From an uncultured virus (IMG/VR IMGVR_UViG_3300025139_000008) (Duplodnaviria; Heunggongvirae; Uroviricota; Caudoviricetes): 20,000 nt of DNA. Where the stretch lies: IMG/VR virus record IMGVR_UViG_3300025139_000008. The stretch is one strand, 5' to 3'. The notes below the pieces were generated by a model. It was not told the origin of the DNA and did not search any database. It worked only from the letters and a program-made list of their open reading frames with translations. A program made the translations under genes and the position numbers. How positions within the stretch are numbered: the first letter of the stretch is position 1; every line of letters begins with the position of its first letter. Below, piece after piece: positions 667-19,671 of the stretch.

Positions 667-1700
667 TTTACGAGTTAATTGGTTTTGACGAGTTCGAGAC
701 ACTTGAAGATGTTCAAAGGACTTTTTCAACTGTAGGTGCAGGCTGCTCGTTGGTAACCGATACAGAATCTGGGAGAGGAAAAGCCCTCCGGATCGTTTCC
801 GGTGGTGGCTCGGTTCTCGTCCCTGTATCCCCGCCGCCTTTGACAGTAATGGGTGCTTCTTTCCGTGTCCGTGTCATAAGCATGGAAAGTCAATCGAACC
901 GACGCATCCTGTATCGCGTAGAGCGTGATGGTGTTGCTCAATACTCTTTACAGATGGATAACATCGGTAGACTTTATACGACCACAGCCGGTGGAACAGG
1001 TAATCCCAACGTGACATACCCTGTCCCGCTGGTTTTTGGGCAGTGGTATCATATCGAAGTCAAAGGTAGGTCAGCCGACTTCGGAGTCGATGGTGGATTC
1101 TTTGAAGTAAAGCTCAACGGAAAAACCATCATTTACATCGAAAGAGACACAAACAACGTAAACGGTGCGGTTTCGGTGGATTCAGTGAGGCTAAACCTAG
1201 CTTTTGCTTTCGGTGGTGTGGTTGATATTGATGATATTACCTTATGGGATGAAACTGGTGACGAGAACAATGACTTCCTAGGGGATGTCGAAGTTGAGAC
1301 TTTGTTCGCAAATGCGGACGGGACCATCACCGGGTGGACTCCCAACACCGGAACGGCGTGGGAAGCTGTGGACGATACCAGCGAGGATGGCGACACCACT
1401 TACATCTCAAGCTCAACTGTGGGGGGCTCAGCTTCCTTCGGAGTCACTGACTTAGCCAGCAACCCTACCGAGGTCTTGGCGGTGAAGGTCTTCGGTATAG
1501 CTCGTAAAGATGGATTAGGTGACCGGGCAATTAAGCTAGGTGTGGTCAGTAACGGGATCGTGTCGGAAGGTTTGGAGACAACATTATCGACCAGCTATGG
1601 GCCTGTGATAGCTGTGTTCAATAGAGACCCTGATGGTGATGTAACTTGGACACCTCTTTCTGTAAATGCATTACAACCACGAGTTAGTTTGACACTATGA
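663..1700 (+). CDS. Virion/tail protein with concanavalin A/LamG-like domain
   Basis: 345 aa, beta-rich, with GQWYHIEVK...FEVKLNG...IDDITLWD and DFLGDVEVETL motifs typical of LamG-like phage structural proteins. Coupled on both sides by ATGA overlaps. Confidence 0.65.
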   Translation: MIYELIGFDEFETLEDVQRTFSTVGAGCSLVTDTESGRGKALRIVSGGGSVLVPVSPPPLTVMGASFRVRVISMESQSNRRILYRVERDGVAQYSLQMDNIGRLYTTTAGGTGNPNVTYPVPLVFGQWYHIEVKGRSADFGVDGGFFEVKLNGKTIIYIERDTNNVNGAVSVDSVRLNLAFAFGGVVDIDDITLWDETGDENNDFLGDVEVETLFANADGTITGWTPNTGTAWEAVDDTSEDGDTTYISSSTVGGSASFGVTDLASNPTEVLAVKVFGIARKDGLGDRAIKLGVVSNGIVSEGLETTLSTSYGPVIAVFNRDPDGDVTWTPLSVNALQPRVSLTL

Positions 1701-4700
1701 CGGCACGCGTTACTCAGATTGGCATCCAAGGGCTCGTAAAGGGCGATCCTGACGCACGTCTGGCTCAGATCGGTGTGCAGAGCCTTGTCAAGAATATCCC
1801 CGACGTGCGCGTCAGCCAATTGGGTATCAAGGCGCTTGCCCGGAATAATAAAAACGCCGACGAAATTGAACCCACCACACGACTCCTGCAAGCCACGACC
1901 AGTGCCTCGTTAGGTATTCCCGGTGATCCTTACTACAACAAAGTCTCTCTTCTTCTCCAAGCGGATAAGGGGTTTCGGGACCTGTCGAAATACAATGACT
2001 ATGTGAACGGAGATAGGGGGTTTTTGTTCATCCGGGACACGCCGGCTAAGTTCCTAAAGGCATTTGAATCTGTCTCCAGTAACACCATGGGAATCCGTTA
2101 CGATCGCAATCCAGAGCGGTTCGATTTCGGACGCGGGGCTTTTACCATTGAGGGCTGGATCAATCGTCCGGCGTTTAGCGGTTTCCGCTATATCATGGGT
2201 AACTGGTATCTGAAAACGGAGCGTTCTTGGTTCATTGGGACCAACAACAACGCCCTGACTTTCAGAGCCTCGATCGATGGGACGGAAGCCAACTTCTTCA
2301 ATCTCGAAGGAGCGGACTTACCAGCCAATACGTGGACTCACATCTGCGTAGAGCGCGACATCGAGGGGACGGTCCGTATGTATGTCAACGGTCAAACCGT
2401 GGCAACTGGGACTTTTCCAAATGAAATCCGAAAGGTTGATACTAAGCTGATCTTGATGGGTAGAAACCACTCATCGTCTATTGGTGGTATGAATAATTTT
2501 GAGGGCTTATTGGATGATTTCCGGGTAACAAAGGGGGTTGCTCGGTATGCTTCTGATGCCGGGTTTGTCATTCCAACAGCCCCGAATCCGATTGGCCCTG
2601 TTGACTACGAGCCATTCAATACCGATCCTTTCTGGGATAAGACTACGTGTGTCCTCGATCCTTTCGATGGTGCTGCTATTGATTACAAGCGCGGAGCCAC
2701 GATCACTGGTTTAACCGCAAGTAGCTTACAATTCAGCGGCGTCGGAACCATAGCGCATGTGGACGGACAATGGAACTTTGGTGGGCGGACGGAGCCTTTC
2801 ACCTTTGAAGTCGATATTGGTTGGAATAGTTCTTCGGGTAACAGTGTCGTTCAGATTATTTGTCCGGGCAACTGGCACCTCGCTACCGGAACTTCTGTTA
2901 TAGCCTTTCGCGTCTGGAATGGGACATCTTTTGTTGAGGTGTTTTCGTGGCCCAACATAGATGCTGACTGGTATTTCCCCAGAGCCACTGAAACCACAAT
3001 AATTACCCGTGACGAGATGGGGGTTTATCGGTTCTACCAGCAGGGTAAATACATGGGTAGCGCCGTGGCTCCATTTGCACCTGACACACCGACGGCTGAT
3101 TTGACCATCAATGCTGACTCGGCTCGCGTAATCCGCTGCTTGCGGATGACGTGGGACGCCGTTCGTTACCGGGAAGAAGACTTCATCAATAGCCCGATCG
3201 CGGATTTACCGCCCCCGCGTAGTGGGCCGGCTTATGCCGCCCCGATCCTCCCGGATGCGACATACCCCTATGACTTGGCATTCCCTGATCCCAAGGACGG
3301 AGCAGTAACTTGGCGGAGCGTTGTCGGTGCCAGCCCGTCCCCTAGGACTATCCATACTTCTGGTGTTCTTTACGAAGAAGACCCGAATGATCGCTGGCGT
3401 TGGGCTACAGGAAATTCTTCCACCACATTGTTGGATTATCATAGACTCCTTATCCCTGTTCAATATCTTGATGACATTGATGCAGGTGGAGTCTTCCTTG
3501 AATACTCCGCACTAGCGGCTGCCCCTTTCGATCACGCTGGGAACGGCACCCTCGTGGCGCTCGCGTTGGATAAGAATAGTCAAATGCTAAACGCATCCAG
3601 CAGCGACGCTGTTGTGACGGATAAGACTTTCAAGAACACGCAAGGGGCTATGTTCCTACCAGTGGGAACCCGGACCGTTGAGGTGGGTATCCTAGCTGGG
3701 TTGAGTGCTTTCCAAGGTAACTACGTCATGAGCCGCATCTCTGCCCGTCTCGTTGACGGGTTTGAGGATGCTCGCGAATATCTCAGCAAACCGACTCAGT
3801 TGATGGGCTCGATCATCAAGACTGACAATACGGAATGGACCGACGCTCGCGGCGGCACCATTATCGATACAGCAAACCTGAGTTGGCTGGCTACTTCGCT
3901 GACCACAACCCAGAGGGTGATGGACCTTCGGTGTGTGGATGATCTTCCGAGCAGCTACTTCACCAGCATCGACAACGGACTGGCGGCTTTTCGTTTTAAG
4001 GCTATCGCAACTCAGAATGAGGTCGATGATTTTGGGTGGGCCTATGTCGAGTTTCTGGATGTGTCAGATCAAGTAGTCGGCCGCCGGGTTTTCAGTTCAC
4101 CTAACCCACGGGTTGCATCGCCAAGGTTTGTGGGTCTCAATGTCGATTGTCCGATCCCGGTCGGTGCCCGTAAGGTCGTCATGGCTATCATGGGCTCGAT
4201 GAATTATGGCGAAGTCGTGAATGGCACCAACCAGATCAATTTCCCGACGAACTTCCACGAGGCATATTGCTACATCCCGGCGTCAGGGGAGATGCCAGTA
4301 ATCCCGGTCCCGCCGACTCCGGCAGGGGATGAGCATTGGGATAACGTAGTCTGCCTTCTGTCTACCCGTAATGGGGTGATCGAGAATCTGGGTAACCCCC
4401 GATACAGAGAACACATCGCTCCGGTCGGTGTGTCCGTAGCCTCGATCGATTCTCCATTCGGAGACACAGCCATAGCGTCCAACTTGTCTCTGGTGACAGG
4501 TAATTCGTTCTATGTCGAAGTCAAACTGGCTGACTTTGAAGGAGGGGCCTTTGGTCCCCAGATGACTTTCGAGGGCTGGTTCTACAGAACTCATCCAGTT
4601 AACACAGCGTTACCGAGTATCGGTATTCACAACCAGTTAAACGGTAATAACGGCGCTATTGATGGCGCGACTACTGGTATCCTGATGGATGGTGTGACGA

Positions 4701-5056
4701 CGACAAACGTCCAAAGCATCATCGATCAGTGGTATCACATCGCCTATTGTCGTGACGAAACTGGTAGAGCGGTTCTGTTCGTAAACGGCGAACGTCAGAA
4801 TATCGGTAGAACCGCGTTTGCAACGTTGTGGAACCGGGTTTTCCGGATCGGCCAATGGAATGTCGCATCCAATGTTTTCGGATGGTGCGGGTATTACGAC
4901 GAAATTCGGATTACCAAAGACGTTGAACGATACACCGAAAACTTCACACCTCCGGGCAATCGTTACCCGACCAAGCTGCCTTCTGGGTCGCTTTTGTTGA
5001 ATGGCGAAACCGGGCGCTTGCTACTCTCCGGAGACACTGGTGGAATCCTTACCTAA
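1697..5056 (+). CDS. Large tail fibre/receptor-binding protein with three LamG-like modules and two carbohydrate-binding-like repeats
   Basis: 1119 aa. Modules begin DPYYNKVSLLL, DPFWDKTTCVL, DEHWDNVVCLL and end DDFRVTKGVARY, RCLRMTWDAVRY, DEIRITKDVERY. LamG motifs FTIEGW and WTHICVER/WYHIAYCR. Central duplicated IDAG...LPVGTR and IDNG...IPVGAR units. Confidence 0.75.
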   Translation: MTARVTQIGIQGLVKGDPDARLAQIGVQSLVKNIPDVRVSQLGIKALARNNKNADEIEPTTRLLQATTSASLGIPGDPYYNKVSLLLQADKGFRDLSKYNDYVNGDRGFLFIRDTPAKFLKAFESVSSNTMGIRYDRNPERFDFGRGAFTIEGWINRPAFSGFRYIMGNWYLKTERSWFIGTNNNALTFRASIDGTEANFFNLEGADLPANTWTHICVERDIEGTVRMYVNGQTVATGTFPNEIRKVDTKLILMGRNHSSSIGGMNNFEGLLDDFRVTKGVARYASDAGFVIPTAPNPIGPVDYEPFNTDPFWDKTTCVLDPFDGAAIDYKRGATITGLTASSLQFSGVGTIAHVDGQWNFGGRTEPFTFEVDIGWNSSSGNSVVQIICPGNWHLATGTSVIAFRVWNGTSFVEVFSWPNIDADWYFPRATETTIITRDEMGVYRFYQQGKYMGSAVAPFAPDTPTADLTINADSARVIRCLRMTWDAVRYREEDFINSPIADLPPPRSGPAYAAPILPDATYPYDLAFPDPKDGAVTWRSVVGASPSPRTIHTSGVLYEEDPNDRWRWATGNSSTTLLDYHRLLIPVQYLDDIDAGGVFLEYSALAAAPFDHAGNGTLVALALDKNSQMLNASSSDAVVTDKTFKNTQGAMFLPVGTRTVEVGILAGLSAFQGNYVMSRISARLVDGFEDAREYLSKPTQLMGSIIKTDNTEWTDARGGTIIDTANLSWLATSLTTTQRVMDLRCVDDLPSSYFTSIDNGLAAFRFKAIATQNEVDDFGWAYVEFLDVSDQVVGRRVFSSPNPRVASPRFVGLNVDCPIPVGARKVVMAIMGSMNYGEVVNGTNQINFPTNFHEAYCYIPASGEMPVIPVPPTPAGDEHWDNVVCLLSTRNGVIENLGNPRYREHIAPVGVSVASIDSPFGDTAIASNLSLVTGNSFYVEVKLADFEGGAFGPQMTFEGWFYRTHPVNTALPSIGIHNQLNGNNGAIDGATTGILMDGVTTTNVQSIIDQWYHIAYCRDETGRAVLFVNGERQNIGRTAFATLWNRVFRIGQWNVASNVFGWCGYYDEIRITKDVERYTENFTPPGNRYPTKLPSGSLLLNGETGRLLLSGDTGGILT

Positions 5057-5068
5057 AAGGAAATTGAA

Positions 5069-5656
5069 ATGGCTGATAAAGACACATTAGCATTAGACGT
5101 AGCGGGCCTGCTGGATGGCTCAGAGCAGGTTCACATCGTTCAGGACGGGGAGAGCGTGAGGACGAGTGCCGGCGACATTGCCGCTCTCGCGGGCGATCCC
5201 GGATCGGTATTTGGTCCTAAGTGGGAGATCGCTTTCCAGTGGACGTGGACGACTAACGTCACGATGGTCGATGCAAACAATCTGGGCGATTACAAAGAAC
5301 TGATTGTTATCTGTAAAGATATTTCAACCAGTGCTTCTGTTCTTCGTTTGTTACAGCTTAGCACCAATAACGGAGTGAGCTACTTTTCTGGTGCAACTGA
5401 CTACACTCTTCTGGCGAATACAGGAACCCTGACCAACAGGAATAATGCCGCCAGCCATGTCAGAACCAACAACGGTCAAAGAACGATTTTCATGCGCCTG
5501 CCGACTAACATCGATGGGGCTATCAAGGTTATCCAGAGCAACGAAGGTAACGTTATTTTCCAAGCCAGCAACGCGAAGGTGGATGCCGTTCGGCTCCTGC
5601 TCAGCGCTGCTGGGAACATCACCGGCGGATCGATGATGATCCTCGGTCTGCGATAA
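5069..5656 (+). CDS. Putative tail fibre/virion accessory protein
   Basis: 195 aa with AAGGA RBS. N-terminus MADKDTLAL..AGLLDGSEQVHIVQDG is typical of phage fibre attachment segments; beta-rich C-terminus. Confidence 0.55.
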   Translation: MADKDTLALDVAGLLDGSEQVHIVQDGESVRTSAGDIAALAGDPGSVFGPKWEIAFQWTWTTNVTMVDANNLGDYKELIVICKDISTSASVLRLLQLSTNNGVSYFSGATDYTLLANTGTLTNRNNAASHVRTNNGQRTIFMRLPTNIDGAIKVIQSNEGNVIFQASNAKVDAVRLLLSAAGNITGGSMMILGLR

Positions 5657-5668
5657 GAAAGAGATACC

Positions 5669-6502
5669 ATGCAAGTCAAAAACCACATCCTCGAAGGCGT
5701 GCGCGTCGTGCGGTCTCCCAACATCTCCGGGTTCATGACACCGACTGGTGCAATCATGCACTACACCGCCAGTTTCAATGCCGATAGTGCAATTCGAACC
5801 TTGACAAATCCGGCTGCCAAGGTATCTGCACATTTGGTGATCGATACTGATGGAACGATCACGCAGCTTGTCCCCTTCAACCGGGTTGCATGGCACGCCG
5901 GACCGTCGAAGCTGGCTGGCCGGACCGGATGCAACAACTTCACGATCGGGTTCGAGTTCGTTAATCCGGGATTTTTCCGGATCGCCAAGGACGGCACAAT
6001 CATGGATTGGGAAGGCAAGCGACCCGTCCCGAAGGCAACGTTGGACCGTTTCGATCTCAGTCTACGTGCGCCAAACCGCCGTGTGGGAGGCGGGACTTTT
6101 GTCTGGCCGGGGTATTCCAAGGCCCAGATCAACGCCGGCCTCGAAGCTCTCAAGGCCATCAAGGAGGCTTACGGTATCACACTGATCGCCGGTCATGAAG
6201 ACATCGACACACGGGGCTGGAAGACCGATCCGGGCCCGGCTTTCCCGATGGGTGATTTCAAGGCCGTCATCCATGGCGGCGAAGATCGCGCCGATGGGAT
6301 GCAGCCGGCTAAGAGCCGCTTCCTTGTCAACACCCCGCGCCTCAACGTCCGGGCCGCACCCAACGGATCAGGCGCGATCCTGACTACCCTGTCGGGCGGC
6401 TCTGAGGTGGTGGTGATCGAAGACCTCGGAGCGTGGAGTCATGTCGAATACGCTCCGGGAAAACGCGGCTACCTTGCAGATCAATTCCTCAAGAAAGGGT
6501 AA
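5669..6502 (+). CDS. Endolysin: N-acetylmuramoyl-L-alanine amidase (Amidase_2) with C-terminal SH3b domain
   Basis: IMHYTA, VSAHLVI, AWHAG, IGFEFVN and GHEDI...KTDPGP zinc-amidase motifs. C-terminal LNVRAAP...WSHVEY...GYL SH3b. Directly upstream of the spanins. Confidence 0.9.
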   Translation: MQVKNHILEGVRVVRSPNISGFMTPTGAIMHYTASFNADSAIRTLTNPAAKVSAHLVIDTDGTITQLVPFNRVAWHAGPSKLAGRTGCNNFTIGFEFVNPGFFRIAKDGTIMDWEGKRPVPKATLDRFDLSLRAPNRRVGGGTFVWPGYSKAQINAGLEALKAIKEAYGITLIAGHEDIDTRGWKTDPGPAFPMGDFKAVIHGGEDRADGMQPAKSRFLVNTPRLNVRAAPNGSGAILTTLSGGSEVVVIEDLGAWSHVEYAPGKRGYLADQFLKKG

Positions 6503-7252: not shown

Positions 7253-8122
7253 ATGACCTCTGTGATTCTCTCCCCGCTGGTCAGCGCGACCATCCTTGCC
7301 GACTCCATCTCGCCCGCCGGCGTCCGTCTGACGACCATGGAACTGGTCTACCCCCGCTTCATTCACTCTGAACTGATGACCCACCGCGTGTTCTCCCGGA
7401 ACGCTTCATCGAGCCGCGCTATCCCGACCAAGCGTGCGATCAAGATGATCCGGGAGAACCCGGCCGTGCCCGCTTCGTGGCGTATGAACCAGCCGGGTAT
7501 GCAGGGCTACGAAGTCGCTTCCGAAGAGACCACGCTGGCTGCCCAGACGATCTGGCTCGCCGCGATGGAAGATGCGATCCGTCACGCCGAAGCGATGGAT
7601 GCATTGGGCATCCACAAGCAAGTGGTCAACCGCATCACAGAGCCGTTCGCTCACATCAAGGTCGTCCTCACGAGCGTTTACTGGGGCAACTGGGATGGCC
7701 TTCGCCGGCATGGTGCCGCTGACCCCACTATCTGTGCGCTGGCCGAAGCGATTCACGAAGCACGAACCAACTCGGTCCCGCAAGACCTGCCGATGGGTGA
7801 ATGGCACCTGCCCTACATCACCAAGGAAGAGCTTGCGATCCACGGCATCAATCTGTGCAAGAAGATCAGCACCGCCCGGTGCGCCCGTGTGAGCTACAAC
7901 AACCACGACGGCACCAAGACGACGCCCGAAGCGGACCTCAAGCTGCACGATATGCTGCTGGTCGATCAGCCGATCCACGCCAGCCCGGCCGAGCATCAGG
8001 CGACTCCTGACCAACGCCGGTTCAATGGATGGGATAAACCCGAACTTCATGGCAACCTTGCCGGCTGGATTCAGTATCGCAAGACGCTGACCGGTGAAAA
8101 CATGGACGCCATTATCGGTTAA
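7253..8122 (+). CDS. thyX: Flavin-dependent thymidylate synthase (phage ThyX/Thy1 type)
   Basis: PRFIHSELMTHRVFSRNASSSRAIP signature, HKQVVNR, ARCARVSY, HASPAEHQA. AGGA RBS. Confidence 0.9.
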   Translation: MTSVILSPLVSATILADSISPAGVRLTTMELVYPRFIHSELMTHRVFSRNASSSRAIPTKRAIKMIRENPAVPASWRMNQPGMQGYEVASEETTLAAQTIWLAAMEDAIRHAEAMDALGIHKQVVNRITEPFAHIKVVLTSVYWGNWDGLRRHGAADPTICALAEAIHEARTNSVPQDLPMGEWHLPYITKEELAIHGINLCKKISTARCARVSYNNHDGTKTTPEADLKLHDMLLVDQPIHASPAEHQATPDQRRFNGWDKPELHGNLAGWIQYRKTLTGENMDAIIG

Positions 8123-8194: not shown

Positions 8195-10478
<2,284 letters not shown>

Positions 10479-10930: not shown

Positions 10931-11141
10931 TGCCGATCCCCGCTGCTCCGCCGTCGTCAAGCGCAACCAAGCTGGTTACGTCATGACCGTCCTTGCCATC
11001 TTCCCGACCTCAGAAGAGGCGTGGGAGTGGGCTCAGAACGCCAATGAGTGGTATGGTGCGGATCACCCGCTCACACCATTGACGATCATGGATGACATCC
11101 TGTCCAGCCCGCCTAAGTTCCCTGTGGAAGCCATGCGGTGA
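10917..11141 (+). CDS. Hypothetical protein
   Basis: 74 aa, fills the gap in a tightly packed gene run. GTGA overlap with the next gene. Confidence 0.6.
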   Translation: MDTSDADPRCSAVVKRNQAGYVMTVLAIFPTSEEAWEWAQNANEWYGADHPLTPLTIMDDILSSPPKFPVEAMR

Positions 11142-11803
11142 AACCCGCTGGCGCTCCTCCCAAGGACCTCGGACTGGTAGCTCTCACACCCAGCGAGATG
11201 ATGTTCTGGATGTATCTTCCGGTGTCCGAACCGGGGAATATGCTGGCGCTCGTGCCACATAACCTCAGACAGTTCGACCCCATCCTTTCGGCTGTGCGCG
11301 CTGACGATCCGGACCGATGGATGGACAGCTACGTCTATCTGACCGCGAAGACACTCTGGGTGGAAGGTGGATACATCGGCAACCGACCCGGCTGGCACAT
11401 CGATGGCTACGGGACGGATGATGTGAACTACATCTAGTCTGACCGGGCCCCGACGGTGTTTCTCATCCAGCAAAACCGCTGGATGCTGTCCGAGGACTGC
11501 GACGAGTCGTTGCGCCAGATGGCAAAGATCGGCCGCTATGCCGAAGCCTTCGACCACGTAGGTCTCCGCACCTACCCGGACAAGCACTTGCTCCGTCTGG
11601 ACAACACGGTTCTGCACAGATCACCCACCGGATTCGAGGCTGGGATGCGGACCTTCGTGAAGGTCTCCCTGAGCCGGGATCGCTACAACCTCAAAGGCAA
11701 TTCGGTGAACCACCTCTTGCCTGAGACTCACTGGCCTCTTGTCGATCGACAGGAAGTCCGCAACCACCCGGCGTTCAAGAACTCCGACTTCATCAAGGAT
11801 TGA
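11138..11803 (+). pseudogene. 2OG-Fe(II) dioxygenase-like gene interrupted by one in-frame TAG (11435-11437); pseudogene or readthrough
   Basis: ORFs 11138-11437 and 11456-11803 are in the same frame, joined by TAG-SDRAPT. The joined product has RPGWHID (HxD), LHRSP (distal His) and RTFVK (2OG-binding Arg). Confidence 0.7.
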
Positions 11804-14104: not shown

Positions 14105-14365
14105 TCAGGATTCCAAGACGGACCAATCTTTTGACAGATCGCTGTATCCGCCTAACCGCTTCCCTACTGGATCAGTCAGACTGGCGTCCTGATCCATGAT
14201 AAAGACCTGAGGCACAGTGTTTGTTCCGGTCTTCTGATAAAAATCCTGACGGAGCGAATCATCGGTCAGATCGACTTCGGTGTAGGTATAGCCACGCTTC
14301 ACAAGCTCCATCTTGAGGAGCGAGCAAAACGGGCACCCGAGCTTGGAGTAGACGACGATCTGCAT
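14105..14365 (-). CDS. grx: Glutaredoxin (RNR electron donor)
   Basis: YSKLGCPFC, TVPQVFI and LGGYSDL motifs. Coupled to the nrdB stop. Confidence 0.92.
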   Translation of the reverse strand: MQIVVYSKLGCPFCSLLKMELVKRGYTYTEVDLTDDSLRQDFYQKTGTNTVPQVFIMDQDASLTDPVGKRLGGYSDLSKDWSVLES

Positions 14366-15375
14366 CACGCGTTATCCTCGAACTTGGAAACGAAGTTCCA
14401 CGTATTCTCATCCCAGCCGGTCACGCCGCCCTTGGCATACTCGGTCGATCGGCCTTCGAAGAAGTTGGTGTGCGTGTGGGCAGCCATCATCTCGTCGATC
14501 CAGTCGAGTGGGTTTTCCTTCTGGCGGTAGATCGGCTTGAGACCCAACTGGATCATGCGGCGATCGGCCGTGTAGCGGATGTAGGTCTTGGTCTCCTCGG
14601 CCGTGATGCCGGCGACCTCGCCCATGGCGAACATGAGGTCGATGAAGCGGTCTTCGAGCCGCACCATGTCCTTGGCGATCTGGCGGATGGCTGCCTTGAC
14701 ATCTTCGTTCCAGAGCTTCGGGTTCTCCTTGATCATGGTGTGGAAGAGCTTGAGCATACATTCGACGTGCAGAGTCTCGTCACGCAGCGACCACTCAACG
14801 ATGGTGGACATGCCCTTCATCAGGTTGCGGCGCTTGAAGCTCAGCAGGACAGCGAAGCTGGAGAAAAGCTGCATACCTTCCCCGAAGGCCGAGAACACCG
14901 CCAGATCGAGCGCCAGACGCTCACGCGGGGTGAACCGCCGGCCGTCAGTCCCTTCGGTCCGATCAGCGAACATATACTCGTGTTTCTCAGCCATCTCGGC
15001 GTATTCGGCAAAGGCGCTGTAATCGGACTCCGGCATCCCGACCGTATCGATCAACTGAGAATACGAGTGGATGTGGTTGGCTTCCTGCGTCGCAATTGCC
15101 GAGAGCATCATGCGAATCTCGGTCGGCTTGAACATCGGGATGTAGACATCAAGGTAGCCGTGCGTGATGTCTTCATCACCCTTGGTGAAGAAGCGGAAAA
15201 GCTGGGTGAGAAGATTCTTCTCGGATGGGGTGAGCTTTGAGTTCCAGTCATGCACATCCTCTTGAAGAGGAACTTCGGATGGAAGCCAATGAGTCTTCTG
15301 CAACATATCGTAAGCTTCGAACGCCCACGGAAACTGGAAAGGCTTGTATGCAGCGCTCTTCTTAAAAATGGACAT
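14365..15375 (-). CDS. nrdB: Class Ia ribonucleotide reductase beta subunit
   Basis: HWLPSEV, FFTKGD, EANHIHSY (radical Tyr), EGMQLFSSF, RDETLH di-metal ligands, NFFE..STEY tail. Confidence 0.96.
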   Translation of the reverse strand: MSIFKKSAAYKPFQFPWAFEAYDMLQKTHWLPSEVPLQEDVHDWNSKLTPSEKNLLTQLFRFFTKGDEDITHGYLDVYIPMFKPTEIRMMLSAIATQEANHIHSYSQLIDTVGMPESDYSAFAEYAEMAEKHEYMFADRTEGTDGRRFTPRERLALDLAVFSAFGEGMQLFSSFAVLLSFKRRNLMKGMSTIVEWSLRDETLHVECMLKLFHTMIKENPKLWNEDVKAAIRQIAKDMVRLEDRFIDLMFAMGEVAGITAEETKTYIRYTADRRMIQLGLKPIYRQKENPLDWIDEMMAAHTHTNFFEGRSTEYAKGGVTGWDENTWNFVSKFEDNA

Positions 15376-15859
15376 CTTTCCAAATCTTTCTTGTCTTAAT
15401 GCGAGAAATCACTGTGGCATCTATGCCGTAATCTCTTGCTATTTCTTTTTGCTTGTCTCCGCTTGCTAGGCGGCGTTTAATTTGAGATACATCGACTTCG
15501 GTAAGCTTTGCTTGGGTATGTTGTTCGCCTTTCATAGCGGCGAAGCCAAGAGTTCTTCCTTTTTCAGCTTTGTCATCCATGTTGTCCTTGTTCGTGCCTT
15601 CGAACAAATGCTCTGGACGAACACATGCAGGGTTATCGCAACGATGGCAGGCTTGGAGATTACCTAGGGGACCGTGTAAACGCTCGTAAGCGAAGCGATG
15701 AGCCCTAGCGTTCTTCTGTTTCTCACCGTCCCAGAACAACCCGTAGCCGTCCTTGTCCAATGATCCTTGCCACTCCCAACAACCAGTTTCTGACACTTTG
15801 AACATAGCGTCGAAACGTTCATTGTTGGTGAGACCGCGCTGTCCTTGGAAGCTGGTCAC
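15362..15859 (-). mobile_element. Free-standing HNH homing endonuclease with C-terminal HTH
   Basis: GCWEWQG...DGYG, AHRFAY, ACHRCDNPACVRPEHLFEGTNKDNMDD, then AKLT...QKEIARDYGI...ISRIK. AT-richer than nrdA/nrdB and located between them. Confidence 0.9.
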
Positions 15860-16047: not shown

Positions 16048-16334
16048 CAGTAGGTCTCCGGCATGATGGTATGCAGATCGGTGATTTGACACCCCCGAAT
16101 CTCACCACTTTCGGTATAGAGCATAACGTGATTTTGACGGTGAATCTGAGCATAGACCCTCCCCCAAATGGTGCGCTTGAGACGAGGAGTCCGCCCCGGC
16201 TTGATGTGGCTGGGGTGGGGCTGGTGGGGGTATTCGTAACCGACTACCCGACCCACCAGATCGCCCTTGAAATCGGGAAAAGCATCAGCATAGCTATCGA
16301 GAAAATTATCCTTCACAGGCGAGGCATCCTTCAT
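16047..16334 (-). CDS. Hypothetical protein
   Basis: Overlaps the nrdA end; start is 16334 or GTG 16316. Coupled to the downstream gene. Confidence 0.55.
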   Translation of the reverse strand: MKDASPVKDNFLDSYADAFPDFKGDLVGRVVGYEYPHQPHPSHIKPGRTPRLKRTIWGRVYAQIHRQNHVMLYTESGEIRGCQITDLHTIMPETY

Positions 16335-18072
16335 CTTCGGGCATGACCATTTCCAGCGCAGCCACCTTGGTGTTCATGTTCTCAGCTTTCTTGGGAGCCT
16401 TGGACCGCACATAATACATACTTTTGCTACCACCGGCCCAAGCCATGAAGTGCAGTTCGAGCATGTAGTCGGCGTCCACGAATGCGGGCACCGAGATGTT
16501 AAGGCTAACGCCCTGATCGACGTAGCCGGAACGATCGTTCGCCATCTGAATGGTCAGGCGCTGGTCGGTCTCGAAGGCGGTGGCGAACACAGCCTTTTCC
16601 TGATCGGTCAGGAAGTCCAGATGCTGGACCGAACCTTCGTGGAGCAGGATGTCCTTCCAGACTTCCTTGGTGTTCTTGCCCTTGGTTTCGAGCAGGCGAA
16701 CCAGCGACGGATTCTTAACGGTGTGCGAACCGGTCAGAGTCTTGTGGATGAAGATGTTCTCCGGCCACTGTTCGATGGACGGCGAGATCGGACCCTGCGG
16801 CACGAAGATCGACGACGAAGCATTCGGAGCCACAGCCATGCGGTGGGAGAAGCGATGCCCGGTGCCGGCCATGTCTGGCGCTTCACCGCGTTCAGCACCG
16901 AGCTTGAGCGAAGCCGCGATCGTCTTCTTCTGCAAGTCTTCGAACATCATCACGTTGTAGGCGCGAGCAAGGTCACTGCCCCACACGATCCCGTGATCCT
17001 GCAAGTAGGTGTGGAGGCCCATGCCGCCCAGACCGACCGACCGCTCGTTCTTTGCTGAGGCGACAGCACGCCACAGTTCCGGAGGAGCCTTCGCGATGAA
17101 GTCATCCAGCGTGTTGTCGAGCATCCGCATGAGGTCTTCGATGAAGAGCGGGTGATCCTTCCACTCATCGTAGGCCGCGAGGTTCGGACTCGACAGGCAG
17201 CAGACCGCTGTGCGATCTTCGGCCGTCGGAAGCATGATCTCCGTGCAGAGATTCGAGTGATTGATCTTGAGGCCCTTGTCCTTGAGAGGCTGGGGCAGCG
17301 CACGATTGGCGGTGTCCTTGAACAGGATGAAGGGCTCGCCGGTCTGGTGGCGCGTCTCGACGATCTTCCGCATCAGAGCGCGGGCGTTGACCGTCTTCTT
17401 GATCTCGCCGGTCTTCGGGCTGCGGAAGTTCCACTCAGCATCGGCCAGACAGGCGCGCATGAAGTCGTCTGTGATGTTGATGGCGTGGTGAAGGTTCAGT
17501 GCCTTGCGGTTTGCGTCACCACCCGACGGCTTGCGAAGCTCAAGGAACTCATCCGTTTCCGGGTGCGAGATGTCGAGATAGGCGCAGTAGCTACCGCGCC
17601 GGGTCTTACCCTGCGAGAACGCCAGCATGTAGCGATCGAGGATGCAGACAAACGGGATGCCGCCGGACGACGCCGAACCCTTGGATGTGCCTTCCGCGCC
17701 GCGCACAGCGATGTAGCCACCAACACCACCACCGAGGCTGGAGAGCCACGAAGTCTCTTCGTAGTGGGCGTTGATGCCCTTGCGGCTGTCGGCCATGTAG
17801 TTGAGGTAGCAGGAGATCGGAAGACCGCGCTCGGTGCCGCCATTGGAGAGTAGCGGGGTGGCGAACATGAACCAGCCCTTGGAAGCATAATCGTAGAGTC
17901 GCTGGGCATGTGCGGCGTCATCGGCGAAGGCTGCCGAGGCGCGGGCGAACGCATGTTGAGGACTGGTCTCCCCTTCAACCATGTAGCGATCTTGTAGGGT
18001 TTCAATGGCGTGCGGAGCGAGCAGAGCGTCGCGCCCGAGATCGATAATGACCTCGTTCGGGGAGACTGGCAT
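16306..18072 (-). CDS. nrdA: Class Ia ribonucleotide reductase alpha subunit, no ATP cone
   Basis: ATPLLSNGG, PISCY, SNLCTEI, VCCLSS, APNASSS, DQGVSLN, SMYY, C-terminal CLACEG. A promoter at 18113-18141 lies inside the longer ORF, so ATG 18072 is preferred. Confidence 0.96.
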   Translation of the reverse strand: MPVSPNEVIIDLGRDALLAPHAIETLQDRYMVEGETSPQHAFARASAAFADDAAHAQRLYDYASKGWFMFATPLLSNGGTERGLPISCYLNYMADSRKGINAHYEETSWLSSLGGGVGGYIAVRGAEGTSKGSASSGGIPFVCILDRYMLAFSQGKTRRGSYCAYLDISHPETDEFLELRKPSGGDANRKALNLHHAINITDDFMRACLADAEWNFRSPKTGEIKKTVNARALMRKIVETRHQTGEPFILFKDTANRALPQPLKDKGLKINHSNLCTEIMLPTAEDRTAVCCLSSPNLAAYDEWKDHPLFIEDLMRMLDNTLDDFIAKAPPELWRAVASAKNERSVGLGGMGLHTYLQDHGIVWGSDLARAYNVMMFEDLQKKTIAASLKLGAERGEAPDMAGTGHRFSHRMAVAPNASSSIFVPQGPISPSIEQWPENIFIHKTLTGSHTVKNPSLVRLLETKGKNTKEVWKDILLHEGSVQHLDFLTDQEKAVFATAFETDQRLTIQMANDRSGYVDQGVSLNISVPAFVDADYMLELHFMAWAGGSKSMYYVRSKAPKKAENMNTKVAALEMVMPEDEGCLACEG

Positions 18073-18112
18073 GAGTTTTGGGTGTCCGTAGATGAAGTGA
18101 AAACGGCCGCAC

Positions 18113-18141
18113 AGTATAGCGAAAATGTCGGTGGTGATCAA
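18113..18141 (-). promoter_or_regulatory. Sigma70-type promoter for nrdA
   Basis: TTGATC, 17 bp (containing CACCGACATT), TATACT on the - strand. Confidence 0.75.
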
Positions 18142-18148
18142 GGAGTAA

Positions 18149-18166
18149 ATTTGCTGTGCAGCAAAT
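18149..18166. promoter_or_regulatory. Palindrome upstream of the nrdA promoter
   Basis: ATTTGCTG-tg-CAGCAAAT with 8-bp arms, 7 bp upstream of the -35. Confidence 0.5.
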
Positions 18167-18183
18167 ATACCGCTTGACACGAA

Positions 18184-18801
18184 TTAGTGCTGGAGGACGG
18201 TGGAGAGACCCTTGGCTACGCTGAACCGAGGAAGCGCCAGACCAGTTCCGTAGACCCAACGACCGAACTCTGGGTGGACCCGTTCACCGTAGGAGCCGAT
18301 CTCAATCTCGGCGAGTTCCAGATCGAAGCCAATGTCAGTGGCAACAATATCCGGATCGATCCCACTCAGGACACCGACCACTTCGCGGGCGTCATGCATG
18401 ACGCGATCGACAGTCGCATCTTCGACAGTGACGAAGAGTTCGGCCTTCATGAATCCAGTCTGGTAGAAGATGTTCTGGACTGGCTCATGGCGGAAACAAG
18501 GTGTCACACCGATGTATGCGCCGGGCTTGAGACCCATGGACAAAAAGCCTTGCTCGGCAGACCCCACGAGGTAGTGGGCTTCTTCGAAGGCATCAGTCGC
18601 GCCGATCCATTTACCATCATGGTCGCGGTGGTCAAAACGGGGACCGGCAACGTAGACAGGAAACTCCGGCGGTAAGGTGGCGCGGATCGGTGCCTCAGGC
18701 ACTAGCCAAGGGACTTCCTTGTAGACGTAGCCGCGTTTCTGATACTCCGTGACCGCCCGGCCGAGTAGCGCGTAGTCGATCATGGGTGTCATATCAGTCA
18801 T
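18184..18801 (-). CDS. Minimal seryl-tRNA synthetase-like (class II aaRS) catalytic-domain protein
   Basis: Motif 1 RGYVYKEVPWLV, YLVGSAEQ, motif 2 TPCFRHE...FMKAE, FDLE..EIGS, motif 3 GTGLALPR. About 205 aa; start 18801, 18792 or 18783. Confidence 0.8.
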   Translation of the reverse strand: MTDMTPMIDYALLGRAVTEYQKRGYVYKEVPWLVPEAPIRATLPPEFPVYVAGPRFDHRDHDGKWIGATDAFEEAHYLVGSAEQGFLSMGLKPGAYIGVTPCFRHEPVQNIFYQTGFMKAELFVTVEDATVDRVMHDAREVVGVLSGIDPDIVATDIGFDLELAEIEIGSYGERVHPEFGRWVYGTGLALPRFSVAKGLSTVLQH

Positions 18802-19033
18802 CGTCCTCTTGGTCTTCGTCGCCGAAATCGTCTGGCCCCATGATGAAGTCGCTGCACATCTCGCAAAGCTGGGTGCATTCATCGACCCACGGACCGGTAT
18901 CACCACACTCCATGCATTCGTCAGGATCGGGAATCCGTTCGAGGACCTTACCGTCCTTGTCAACAAGGAACCGACCCTCAGCCGTCTCGACGATCTCGGG
19001 ATAGAAAACCGGTTGGGCCTTGATCTCAGTCAT
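18794..19033 (-). CDS. Small acidic zinc-finger-like protein (79 aa)
   Basis: AGGAG RBS before ATG 19033. CMEC...CTQLCEMC and an acidic tail DDFGDEDQEDDD. Confidence 0.7.
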   Translation of the reverse strand: MTEIKAQPVFYPEIVETAEGRFLVDKDGKVLERIPDPDECMECGDTGPWVDECTQLCEMCSDFIMGPDDFGDEDQEDDD

Positions 19034-19385
19034 CACAGTTCTCCTGCCTCGCGGCAAACTCAGGGCAAAGCTCAGCGACCTTGCGATGCTGATCGTATCG
19101 GTAATCCGCCCACGGATCATCTTCACCACCAACGAGACGGACAAAGCCGGTCTGCTCGTTGACCACACGGGCTCGGGTATATCGCTCGCCCTGCCCATCG
19201 TCACGAAAGACGTGATAATCCGGCGTTTCGATCCCGGCGTCTTCCATCTCGACCAGAAGCGCTTCGAAGCGCTTGCGCCATTCCATGGGCATGACTTGCA
19301 GTGCGAGCTTGGGCAGCACCAAGTAAGGCGTCCGGGCAAGCCGAAGATCGAACGGACACTGCTCCATGACCATGGCCTCAGCCAT
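19026..19385 (-). CDS. Conserved-looking phage hypothetical protein (119 aa)
   Basis: GGGAG RBS before ATG 19385. YLVLPKLALQVMPMEWRKRF...DPWADYRY pattern. Confidence 0.7.
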   Translation of the reverse strand: MAEAMVMEQCPFDLRLARTPYLVLPKLALQVMPMEWRKRFEALLVEMEDAGIETPDYHVFRDDGQGERYTRARVVNEQTGFVRLVGGEDDPWADYRYDQHRKVAELCPEFAARQENCDD

Positions 19386-19671
19386 CACGGTTCTCCCGCA
19401 CACCCGACTCGAAAGCCCGCTTGGTGACAGCCGCCATCGCGGCAAGGTCTGCAAGGGTCACAGTCGGGTGATGCTTTACCAGCCACCCTTCGATCGCTCC
19501 GATCACATCGGAGAGTTCGACCAGCGCCATGATCTGGACGTTCTGGTCAAGAGCATCGGCGAACTCGTCGATCTCTTCGTAAATCTTGGAGTCCTCACCG
19601 AACACACCGCGAGCGATCACAGCCTTGTGATAGCCCAGCAGGGCGTCGATGGTCTCATCGGGATCAGCCAC
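19378..19671 (-). CDS. MazG-like / all-alpha NTP pyrophosphohydrolase
   Basis: SKIYEEIDEFADA...LVELSDVIGAI gives EExxE...ExxD metal-binding helices. 97 aa. Confidence 0.7.
   Translation of the reverse strand: MADPDETIDALLGYHKAVIARGVFGEDSKIYEEIDEFADALDQNVQIMALVELSDVIGAIEGWLVKHHPTVTLADLAAMAAVTKRAFESGVRENRDG

Follow-up and report, generated by a model that had tools for sequence, protein, structure and literature searches.

The DNA considered here is a 20,000-nucleotide stretch (hereafter the window) of the IMG/VR record IMGVR_UViG_3300025139_000008, which stems from an uncultured virus of the Caudoviricetes; the source record comprises 96.8 kb and has a CheckV completeness estimate of 57%. On the minus strand, at positions 18184..18801, the window encodes an armless mini-SerRS, i.e., the catalytic core of a class II aminoacyl-tRNA synthetase, as identified by its translation, its match to PHROG 4806, its fold and alignment by hhalign. 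A second gene on the same strand, at 19378..19671, encodes an all-alpha protein of 97 amino acids (aa) that resembles nucleoside triphosphate (NTP) pyrophosphatases of the HisE/MazG type (phrog_6408, E 5.8e-31) and is referred to as the partner. A preliminary description made from the sequence alone had presented the core as a stand-alone enzyme. The comparisons below establish core and partner as an obligate two-gene module, and have led us to a tentative reading of the pair as a two-part ligase that acts on a nucleotide.

The core gene and its partner

The open reading frame (ORF) of the core yields 205 aa when translated from the ATG at 18801 and ends with a TAA at 18186-18184. A second in-frame ATG at 18792, which would give a protein of 202 aa, is the more likely start, since homologues begin with MTP.IDY. 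The translation contains the motifs GY..VPWLV, LVGSAE, TPCFRHE, FMKAE, DLE/EIGS and GTGLALPR, confirming that the ORF carries class II motifs in the order found in SerRS, as had been claimed. The partner is located 601 nt upstream of the core, as measured at the domain level, and two small overlapping ORFs lie between them. Purifying selection acts on both genes, strongly so on the core: compared with three relatives of 90-96% identity, the core had a dN/dS of 0.04-0.06, and the partner, compared with five relatives, one of 0.12-0.23.

The neighbourhoods of seven annotated phages belonging to very different lineages were examined, and small ORFs beside the core were translated. A partner of about 85 aa was found directly upstream of the core in Pectobacterium phage phiTE, Escherichia coli phage PHB05 and Caulobacter phage CcrColossus. 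In Acinetobacter phage Apostate, the partner forms part of a longer gene annotated as MazG, and in gp131 of Microcystis phage Ma-LMM01 it forms the C-terminal part of a fusion with the core. A local hidden Markov model of the partner was run over all ORFs of 88 loci, i.e., the best 80 of 87 confirmed IMG/VR loci (from 119 pattern matches), the seven annotated phages and the window. The partner was detected in 84 of these loci, in every case on the same strand as the core, being located upstream in 74 (38 of them within 100 nt), downstream in 6 and fused to the core C-terminus in 4. In the upstream pairs within 100 nt, stop and start codons often overlap, and the two genes are usually translationally coupled. 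No partner was found in the flanks of the remaining four loci (L030, L068, L084 and L069, the last with its core at a contig edge).

After dereplication on the core, the partner was retained in 60 of 64 clusters at 90% identity, in 56 of 60 at 70% and in 43 of 44 at 50%; the single partner-less lineage at 50% identity has its core at a contig edge. When prokaryotes were scanned independently, with one genome for each species, 14 loci were obtained, 13 of which possess the partner (one as a fusion), and here, too, the lone miss is at a contig edge. Where the two are fused, 11-15 residues separate the motif-3 arginine of the core from the GYH motif of the partner. By tblastn, the partner was identified in 269 of 50,697 phage records, compared to 276 records for the core, and the counts by genus are closely similar for the two: Escherichia (113/112), Acinetobacter (59/61), Caulobacter (13/13), Pectobacterium (10/10), Cronobacter (8/8) and Brevundimonas (7/7). 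Within the loci examined, the partner never occurred away from a synthetase-like core. Complex prediction for core and partner gave an ipSAE of 0.00 in both runs, which were carried out without controls and provide no evidence either way. The module is an obligate pair of core and partner genes, sometimes fused, and the presence of the partner in nearly all loci and lineages contradicts the notion of a stand-alone enzyme. The partner, which the preliminary description had missed, provides the chief hint as to function.

The mini-SerRS family is large and for the most part viral. It comprises 1,647 representatives at E<=1e-3 (clusters of 50% identity; 1.84 billion cluster representatives searched), of which 1,442 remain at E<=1e-10 and 1,105 at E<=1e-30. 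The median length is 195 aa among 258 proteins of the family. Among the carriers are widely used laboratory phages, including the E. coli phages phi92 and phAPEC8 in addition to CcrColossus, phiTE and Ma-LMM01, and the ESM Atlas clusters of the family are 86-100% viral and named 'hypothetical'.

Fold and active site of the core, and nature of the partner

As a single sequence, the core was hardly recognized. The Pfam search merely returned tRNA-synt_2b at E 0.32, the score for PF00587 (11.5 bits) was below the cut-off of 29.3, no NCBIfam family was matched at E<=10, and phmmer found no match in the PDB. TIGR00414 had no match in the source record. Among phage protein families, the core was assigned to phrog_4806 (E 1.6e-31), which bears the label 'histidyl tRNA synthetase'. 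Of 638 candidates from a search of 5.8 billion proteins, 200 were homologues at E<=1e-3, all of the 120 matches listed being 167-276 aa long; some homologues show weak matches to PF00152. A profile built from 64 of the homologues (A1) matched 35 PDB sequences at E<=10, with SerRS at the top (6hdz, E 2.5e-5), followed by PylRS (2e-4) and, weakly, AspRS/AsnRS; no HisRS or HisZ chain was among the 35. When aligned to E. coli SerRS by hhalign, the same profile gave a probability of 92.4% and an E-value of 5.2e-7 over 169 columns, covering only residues 170-402, i.e., the catalytic domain.

The AlphaFold model of the core (pLDDT 94.8, pTM 0.89) pointed in the same direction. Foldseek ranked SerRS, PylRS and PheRS-alpha at E-values of about 1e-9 to 1e-8. 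In an exhaustive structure comparison of the model with 48,161 solved chains (VIA), the top seven were all SerRS of the bacterial/eukaryotic type (Z 17.4-18.7), with 183-193 aligned residues (about 185 of 205) at 19-24% identity. Below these ranked HisZ (3rac; Z 17.1, 11% identity) and PylRS (16.5), then SepRS, PheRS, ProRS and 3mey, an aa:CP (amino acid:carrier-protein) ligase (Z 15.3, 12% identity), and lower still methanogen-type SerRS (14.6-14.7; 2cim 14.6), GenX (3a5y, 13.7) and archaeal AsnA (13.6). Identity to HisRS and HisZ folds was 7-11%, compared to 19-24% for SerRS. The similarity to SerRS greatly exceeds what chance would give. The core is a SerRS-derived class II catalytic core, and its nearest relative is the bacterial-type SerRS. 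The class II synthetase fold assumed earlier is thereby upheld by model confidence, structure comparison and hhalign alike, and of the relatives proposed for comparison SerRS (Z 18.7) has a higher fold score than EpmA/GenX or the aa:CP ligases.

With SerRS of the bacterial/eukaryotic type (TIGR00414; 7u2a, 2dq0, 6x94, 1ser; E. coli SerS), the core shares the class II catalytic fold, in which motif 1, the TxE-like motif, motif 2, the E.SS-like motif and motif 3 follow in the same order and the catalytic arginines are aligned. The pairings of core and SerRS motifs given in the preliminary description were reproduced by both HMMER and hhalign. Across the 64 homologues, 26 columns are invariant. 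In the hhalign alignment, the invariant S81/E83 of the core corresponds to T237/E239 of E. coli SerRS, the invariant R104 and the nearly invariant E106 to R268/E270 in motif 2, F117, K119 and E121 to F287, K289 and E291, the invariant E167/S170 to E355/S358, the invariant T186 to S391, and the invariant R192 to R397 in motif 3. These SerRS positions are presumably the ones that contact seryl-adenylate and Mg-ATP in the Thermus thermophilus enzyme. In 64 of 64 sequences, the arginines of motifs 2 and 3 and the acidic residues at the Mg/ATP positions are unchanged, which suggests that the core is catalytic. Judged from these alignments, the core retains motif 1, which forms the dimer interface, the arginines of motifs 2 and 3 and all signature positions of a SerRS active site.

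What distinguishes the core from SerRS is its size and the lack of the tRNA-binding arm. SerRS comprises about 430 aa including an N-terminal coiled coil, whereas the core of about 200 aa begins at motif 1 and has no N-terminal coiled-coil domain for tRNA binding. A search of the source record for the arm domain (PF02403, Seryl_tRNA_N) was negative across its 96.8 kb (57% complete), while the same domain was detected in 14 of 14 control genomes. The absence of the arm, as described earlier, is therefore borne out. The same applies to the shortened loops: in the hhalign alignment with SerRS, the motif-2 loop is reduced by 6 residues and the segment from EISSCSN to motif 3 is strongly shortened, with other loops trimmed as well. 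Unlike SerRS, the core is below all curated family thresholds and is paired or fused with a HisE/MazG-like protein.

The aa:CP ligases (Bll0957, 3mey) and EpmA/GenX (3a5y) are likewise class II cores that lack the tRNA-binding part, and they attach an amino acid to an acceptor other than tRNA, as outlined in the relevant part of a review on synthetase paralogues (PMC9437257). They differ from the core in their ancestry, which is methanogen-type SerRS or LysRS as opposed to the bacterial-type SerRS of the core, and in their size of about 300 aa. In addition, no carrier protein or EF-P, their respective acceptors, was seen among the conserved neighbours of the mini-SerRS family.

The partner was characterized by a profile of 53 sequences (A2), in which the columns Y14, H15, G25, K29, E32, E33, E36, E52, D55, T83, F87, G90 and R92 are invariant. 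The metal-motif residues E32, E33, E36, E52 and D55 are conserved in all 53 sequences. Together with the preceding lysine, they form the pattern Lys-EExxE...ExxD, located on consecutive helices, which is that of the all-alpha NTP pyrophosphatases. HisE (PF01503) and MazG (PF03819) share with the partner both this pattern and a unit of three or four helices and about 85 aa, whereas the partner stays below the Pfam thresholds and adds two invariant, family-specific motifs, GYH at the N-terminus and T..F..G.R at the C-terminus; a further difference is that, in the loci examined, it occurs only together with the core. The best PDB matches of the partner profile, though weak, were MazG (1vmg, E 0.073) and HisE (2a7w, E 0.092), and both alignments run over the EExxE...ExxD motif. 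The AlphaFold model (pLDDT 89.1) consists of three long helices; HisE, MazG and dCTPase dominate the top of its weak Foldseek list, and its ESM Atlas neighbours are viral 'hypothetical' clusters followed by MazG/PRA-PH clusters. Structure comparison with HisE (1yvw) gave a Z-score of 6.2 and an rmsd of 1.8 A over 62 residues at 21% identity, which was tied with unrelated helical proteins. With moderate confidence, we regard the partner as an enzyme of the HisE/MazG type.

Genes around the pair

The region between partner and core in the window is occupied by two minus-strand ORFs. The one at 18794..19030 would encode a small, Cys-rich acidic protein of 78 aa without a Pfam match. Its stop codon (TGA, 18796-18794) overlaps the core ATG at 18801 and overlaps or abuts the region of the ATG at 18792. 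A similar small ORF is present at the equivalent position in Erythrobacter phage XM05, yet no conservation was found across lineages. The second one, a mechanically called ORF at 19026..19454, has a weak match to phrog_10794 (E 8e-8) and probably starts near 19385, which would correspond to about 119 aa. It sits within a co-directional chain of overlapping genes, and is a non-conserved component outside the module, as the spacing of partner and core varies among close relatives.

Downstream of the core follows the gene for NrdA (16306-18180), the large subunit of ribonucleotide reductase (RNR). The mechanical ORF begins with a GTG at 18180, 3 nt past the core stop. However, the PHROG match to RNR starts only at residue 44, and in the closest phage, XM05, the stop of the homologous core and the start of NrdA are separated by 113 nt. 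The true gap between core and NrdA in the window may for these reasons be about 110 nt. Just 3' of the core stop, an inverted repeat (18150-18165, minus strand; arms of 7 nt, spacer of 2 nt) overlaps the first codons of the mechanical NrdA ORF; it was not among the reports of a consensus terminator scan of the window. Scans of the window for Rfam families, tRNAs, promoters and terminators yielded nothing bearing on the core gene.

Between nrdA and nrdB (14365-15375), the window contains a minus-strand HNH endonuclease gene (15362-15859; phrog_1872, E 6e-31) together with two small ORFs. The corresponding interval of XM05 has two small ORFs and no HNH gene, and thus the HNH gene of the window looks like a homing-endonuclease insertion polymorphism. 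Further away, on the plus strand, a gene at 1697-5056 encodes a protein of 1,119 aa, of which two separate regions match baseplate-wedge and virion structural families, and is followed on the same strand by genes for an amidase-type endolysin (5669-6502), ThyA (7253-8122) and an NAD-dependent DNA ligase (8198-10321). Two adjacent plus-strand ORFs in the same frame, 11138-11437 and 11456-11803, correspond to the N-terminal (17-95) and C-terminal (125-213) parts of phrog_1843 (222 positions) and are separated by one in-frame TAG (11435-11437) plus 18 nt. They could represent a split gene, a pseudogene or a case of amber read-through; no CUA anticodon was present among the 27 tRNAs identified by aragorn in the source genome.

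Across the 88 loci, clustering of all flanking ORFs revealed no family other than the partner in more than 4 of the 44 lineages defined at 50% identity. The next most frequent neighbours were Nuc_deoxyri_tr2 (4 lineages) and DUF4326, HD and DSP phosphatase (3 each). Genes for both the large and the small RNR subunit were located within 4 kb of the core in 3 of 44 lineages. A functional membership of the core in an RNR operon accordingly does not hold as a general rule, and the RNR genes next to the core in the window are a trait of its lineage. The link to the supply of deoxynucleotides that had been drawn earlier holds for the window, with NrdA just downstream, but not for the family in general. 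In one locus, on a contig of a metagenome-assembled genome, the RNR large-subunit gene beside the pair (L091:6101-8863) carries an intein with a LAGLIDADG domain.

Among the 14 loci from prokaryote genomes, a nucleoside- or nucleotide-kinase-like gene directly abuts the pair in five, in ultra-small bacteria and archaea. The kinases represent two different families and occur on either side of the pair. In three Saccharibacteria-type metagenome-assembled genomes (L097:5552-6730, L101:5552-6730 and L098:2928-4052), the kinase proteins of 374-392 aa have an N-terminal half without assignment and a C-terminal domain resembling uridine-cytidine kinase (E 3e-9 to human UCK2), and NUDIX and MazG genes adjoin the pair on the opposite side. 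In the other two (L095 and L096), the abutting gene encodes an AAA_28 kinase-like protein. L095, from a metagenome-assembled genome of a Woesearchaeote, shows the order AAA_28, a core-partner fusion of 267 aa and a radical-SAM gene of 227 aa with overlapping ends (4469-6477). The surroundings are chromosomal (RtcA, EF-1 exchange domain, Trm1), and the best PDB matches of the radical-SAM protein were weak (7tol, E 1e-5; 8wm2, E 2e-4). Genes for a deoxynucleoside monophosphate (dNMP) kinase and MazG were found within about 3 kb of the pair in its phage relatives XM05, RXM, L089 and L091. The position of the pair beside nucleoside kinases in Saccharibacteria and a Woesearchaeote suggests a nucleotide-level function that is common to phages and ultra-small cells.

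The proposed reaction and its alternatives

We propose that core and partner together form a ligase of two parts, which makes seryl-adenylate and whose acceptor is a nucleotide and not a tRNA. In this scheme, the core would activate an amino acid (serine being the likeliest) with ATP to an aminoacyl-adenylate, and would then pass the acyl group to a nucleotide instead of a tRNA chosen by its variable arm. The partner would supply or hold this nucleotide, e.g., by converting an NTP to the monophosphate (NMP) and pyrophosphate, and nucleoside kinases could arrive at this NMP from the opposite direction. This would yield an aminoacyl (seryl) nucleotide or a closely related compound. A precedent for such a logic exists in Z-genome phages, in which MazZ feeds dGMP to PurZ. 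Several observations favour a nucleotide as acceptor, which is the step we infer: the universal partner has a site of the type that cleaves nucleoside triphosphates, the linkage of 11-15 residues in the fusions is short, and kinase-like genes abut five of the 14 cellular loci, with NUDIX and MazG genes next to those of Saccharibacteria, and dNMP kinase and MazG genes lie near the pair in phage relatives. We assign this reading a probability of roughly 0.45. The preliminary description had viewed the core as an adenylating ligase with a non-canonical acceptor; this was reasonable given the intact motifs and the missing arm, and among the acceptors listed there the nucleotide is now favoured, if by inference.

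A number of observations weigh against a nucleotide acceptor. Conservation of the full SerRS active site is equally expected of an enzyme that charges tRNA. The five kinase-adjacent loci include several that are closely related. The assignment of the partner to HisE/MazG is based on the motif and on matches below threshold: its homologues score 14.9-19.6 bits with PF01503 (PRA-PH), under the cut-off of 21.3, and the copy in the window has no match to this family at E<=1; the Foldseek search returned no row at E<=0.001, and VIA gave Z-scores of at most 6.7, values that carry no information in the case of a helical protein. Furthermore, a few family members (4 of 258 proteins) carry N-terminal extensions of the helix-hairpin-helix (HhH) type, namely an RNA_pol_A_CTD extension in P0178 and P0151 (E 3e-6 to 2e-5) and a Pol A HhH-like stretch corresponding to DNA_pol_A profile positions of about 108-150 in P0114 and P0137. 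CcrColossus gp133 (L001:4743-5597) has an N-terminal extension of the RNA polymerase alpha C-terminal domain (CTD) as well. In E. coli phage PHB05, the gene after the core is YqeY-like, and genes for tRNA modification (Trm1, TrmB, SpoU) are located near several cellular copies. The source genome itself encodes 27 tRNAs including tRNA-Ser(CGA), all outside the window, with an array on contig C1:3122-10279 that covers most amino acids. The HhH extensions, the YqeY neighbour, the tRNA-modification genes and the tRNA array would fit an acceptor at the 3' end of a tRNA or another nucleic acid.

Such observations lend some weight to the view that the core is a minimal seryl-tRNA synthetase, which charges host or phage tRNA-Ser with tRNA binding provided in trans and the partner as an auxiliary. 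The helper could be a host SerRS subunit within a heterodimer, in which the arm reaches the opposite subunit, or accessory domains of the HhH or YqeY-like type. All active-site positions of the SerRS type are retained, and most carriers are, like the virus studied here, large phages rich in tRNA genes. According to the parts of PMC10817482 and PMC10570016 that deal with protostome mitochondria, the armless SerRS2-alpha, a catalytically intact subunit that needs a second protein just as the core does, charges tRNA-Ser efficiently together with SLIMP, which bears an arm and is catalytically dead; SerRS, moreover, binds tRNA across both subunits (PMC10817482). As this system demonstrates that a helper can rescue an armless core, we keep tRNA charging as an improbable but serious alternative. 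The parallel is incomplete, since SLIMP is a SerRS paralogue that keeps the arm, whereas the partner of the core is an unrelated small all-alpha protein with a catalytic-type motif of its own. Serine identity is described as resting mainly on the long variable arm of the tRNA, which is read by the very domain that is missing (PMC9976931, PMC10817482), and this domain is absent from the record at its present completeness. Tying the pair to tRNA charging would also leave unexplained why the universal partner is a protein of the NTP-pyrophosphatase type with an invariant metal motif. The partner is acidic (median pI 5.13, compared to 4.95 for the core), making it an unlikely RNA binder, although net charge as such does not discriminate between the readings. 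Relative to SerRS, the motif-2 loop lacks 6 residues, and the features that could supply tRNA binding are rare: the HhH extensions are confined to the few proteins named above, and YqeY, seen as a neighbour in one lineage, reaches at most 3 of 44 lineages; a search of the source record for a YqeY-like protein, at 57% completeness, found none. Finally, the genome report on Citromicrobium phage RXM gives a single tRNA gene, for tRNA-Trp, in a phage that possesses the pair (PMC8953757). A phage tRNA-Ser is thus dispensable, and its role as dedicated substrate is weakened.

Returning to a nucleotide acceptor, the partner could hold an NTP that itself attacks the aminoacyl-adenylate, in which case the pair would produce Ap4N as an alarmone or RNA cap. 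Class II synthetases are known to make Ap4A as a side reaction, the partner carries the motif by which NTP pyrophosphatases bind metal and triphosphate, and in the fusions it lies only a few residues beyond the end of the motif-3 helix. Nevertheless, the full conservation of a hydrolytic-type motif suggests that the partner cleaves NTPs rather than just holding them, and neighbouring kinases that yield NMP are better compatible with an NMP acceptor. We regard an Np4A-type synthetase as unlikely, clearly more so than tRNA charging.

A comparably low probability is given to a regulatory role, in which a HisZ-like core would bind amino acid and ATP and control the pyrophosphatase partner allosterically, which would tie the cleaning of nucleotide pools to the amino-acid or energy status of the cell. 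A HisE-like protein as partner is reminiscent of the histidine pathway, HisZ (3rac, Z 17.1) is structurally close to SerRS in its similarity to the core, and HisZ acting with HisG is described as a precedent for a class II paralogue as regulatory subunit (PMC9437257). However, the same source describes HisZ as devoid of adenylation activity, whereas the catalytic residues of the core are invariant in all 64 sequences. In addition, identity to HisZ is far below that to SerRS (7-11% vs 19-24%), and HisRS and HisZ are absent from the 35 PDB matches of the core profile.

Transfer to the side chain of a protein or to a phosphopantetheine arm, perhaps with the partner itself as target, is similarly improbable: EpmA and the aa:CP ligases are truncated class II cores that do so, according to the section on them in PMC9437257, with Z-scores of 13.7 for GenX (3a5y) and 15.3 for Bll0957 (3mey), and K29, T83 and R92 of the partner are invariant outside its metal motif, but no PP-binding carrier protein (PF00550) was found in the 57%-complete source record and no carrier-like family among the conserved neighbours of the 88 loci, leaving the carrier-protein option raised earlier without support, while the core is nearer to bacterial-type SerRS than to the methanogen-type SerRS (Z 18.7 vs 14.6) that gave rise to the aa:CP ligases, a role as mere substrate would not explain the invariant catalytic-type metal motif of the partner, and a fused substrate would permit just one turnover.

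With regard to earlier work, members of the family are found in databases as 'histidyl tRNA synthetase', 'putative seryl-tRNA synthetase', 'RNA polymerase alpha CTD protein' or 'hypothetical'; the odd reference to RNA polymerase is explained by the N-terminal extensions of some members. The one publication found to discuss a member calls the protein SerRS (PMC8953757), and the table of a 2022 review of synthetase paralogues has just SLIMP and the aa:CP ligases under its SerRS entry (PMC9437257). A full-text literature search confined to main articles returned nothing on the function of the pair or of mini-SerRS, only mentions in genome annotations. Class II cores without a tRNA arm are already known; new is a synthetase paralogue with a new obligate partner. 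Recognizing the core as one half of an obligate two-part enzyme corrects the labels 'histidyl' and 'seryl tRNA synthetase'. Synthetase paralogues lacking tRNA binding have repeatedly turned out to represent new chemistry, as in the case of EpmA, the aa:CP ligases, AsnA and HisZ. It is conceivable, though we consider it doubtful at present, that the pair makes an undescribed class of metabolite, an aminoacyl (seryl) nucleotide derived from an NMP or NTP and used by large phages in their hundreds as well as by ultra-small bacteria and archaea. If true, this would add a new branch to the chemistry of synthetase paralogues and a new nucleotide transaction between phage and host.

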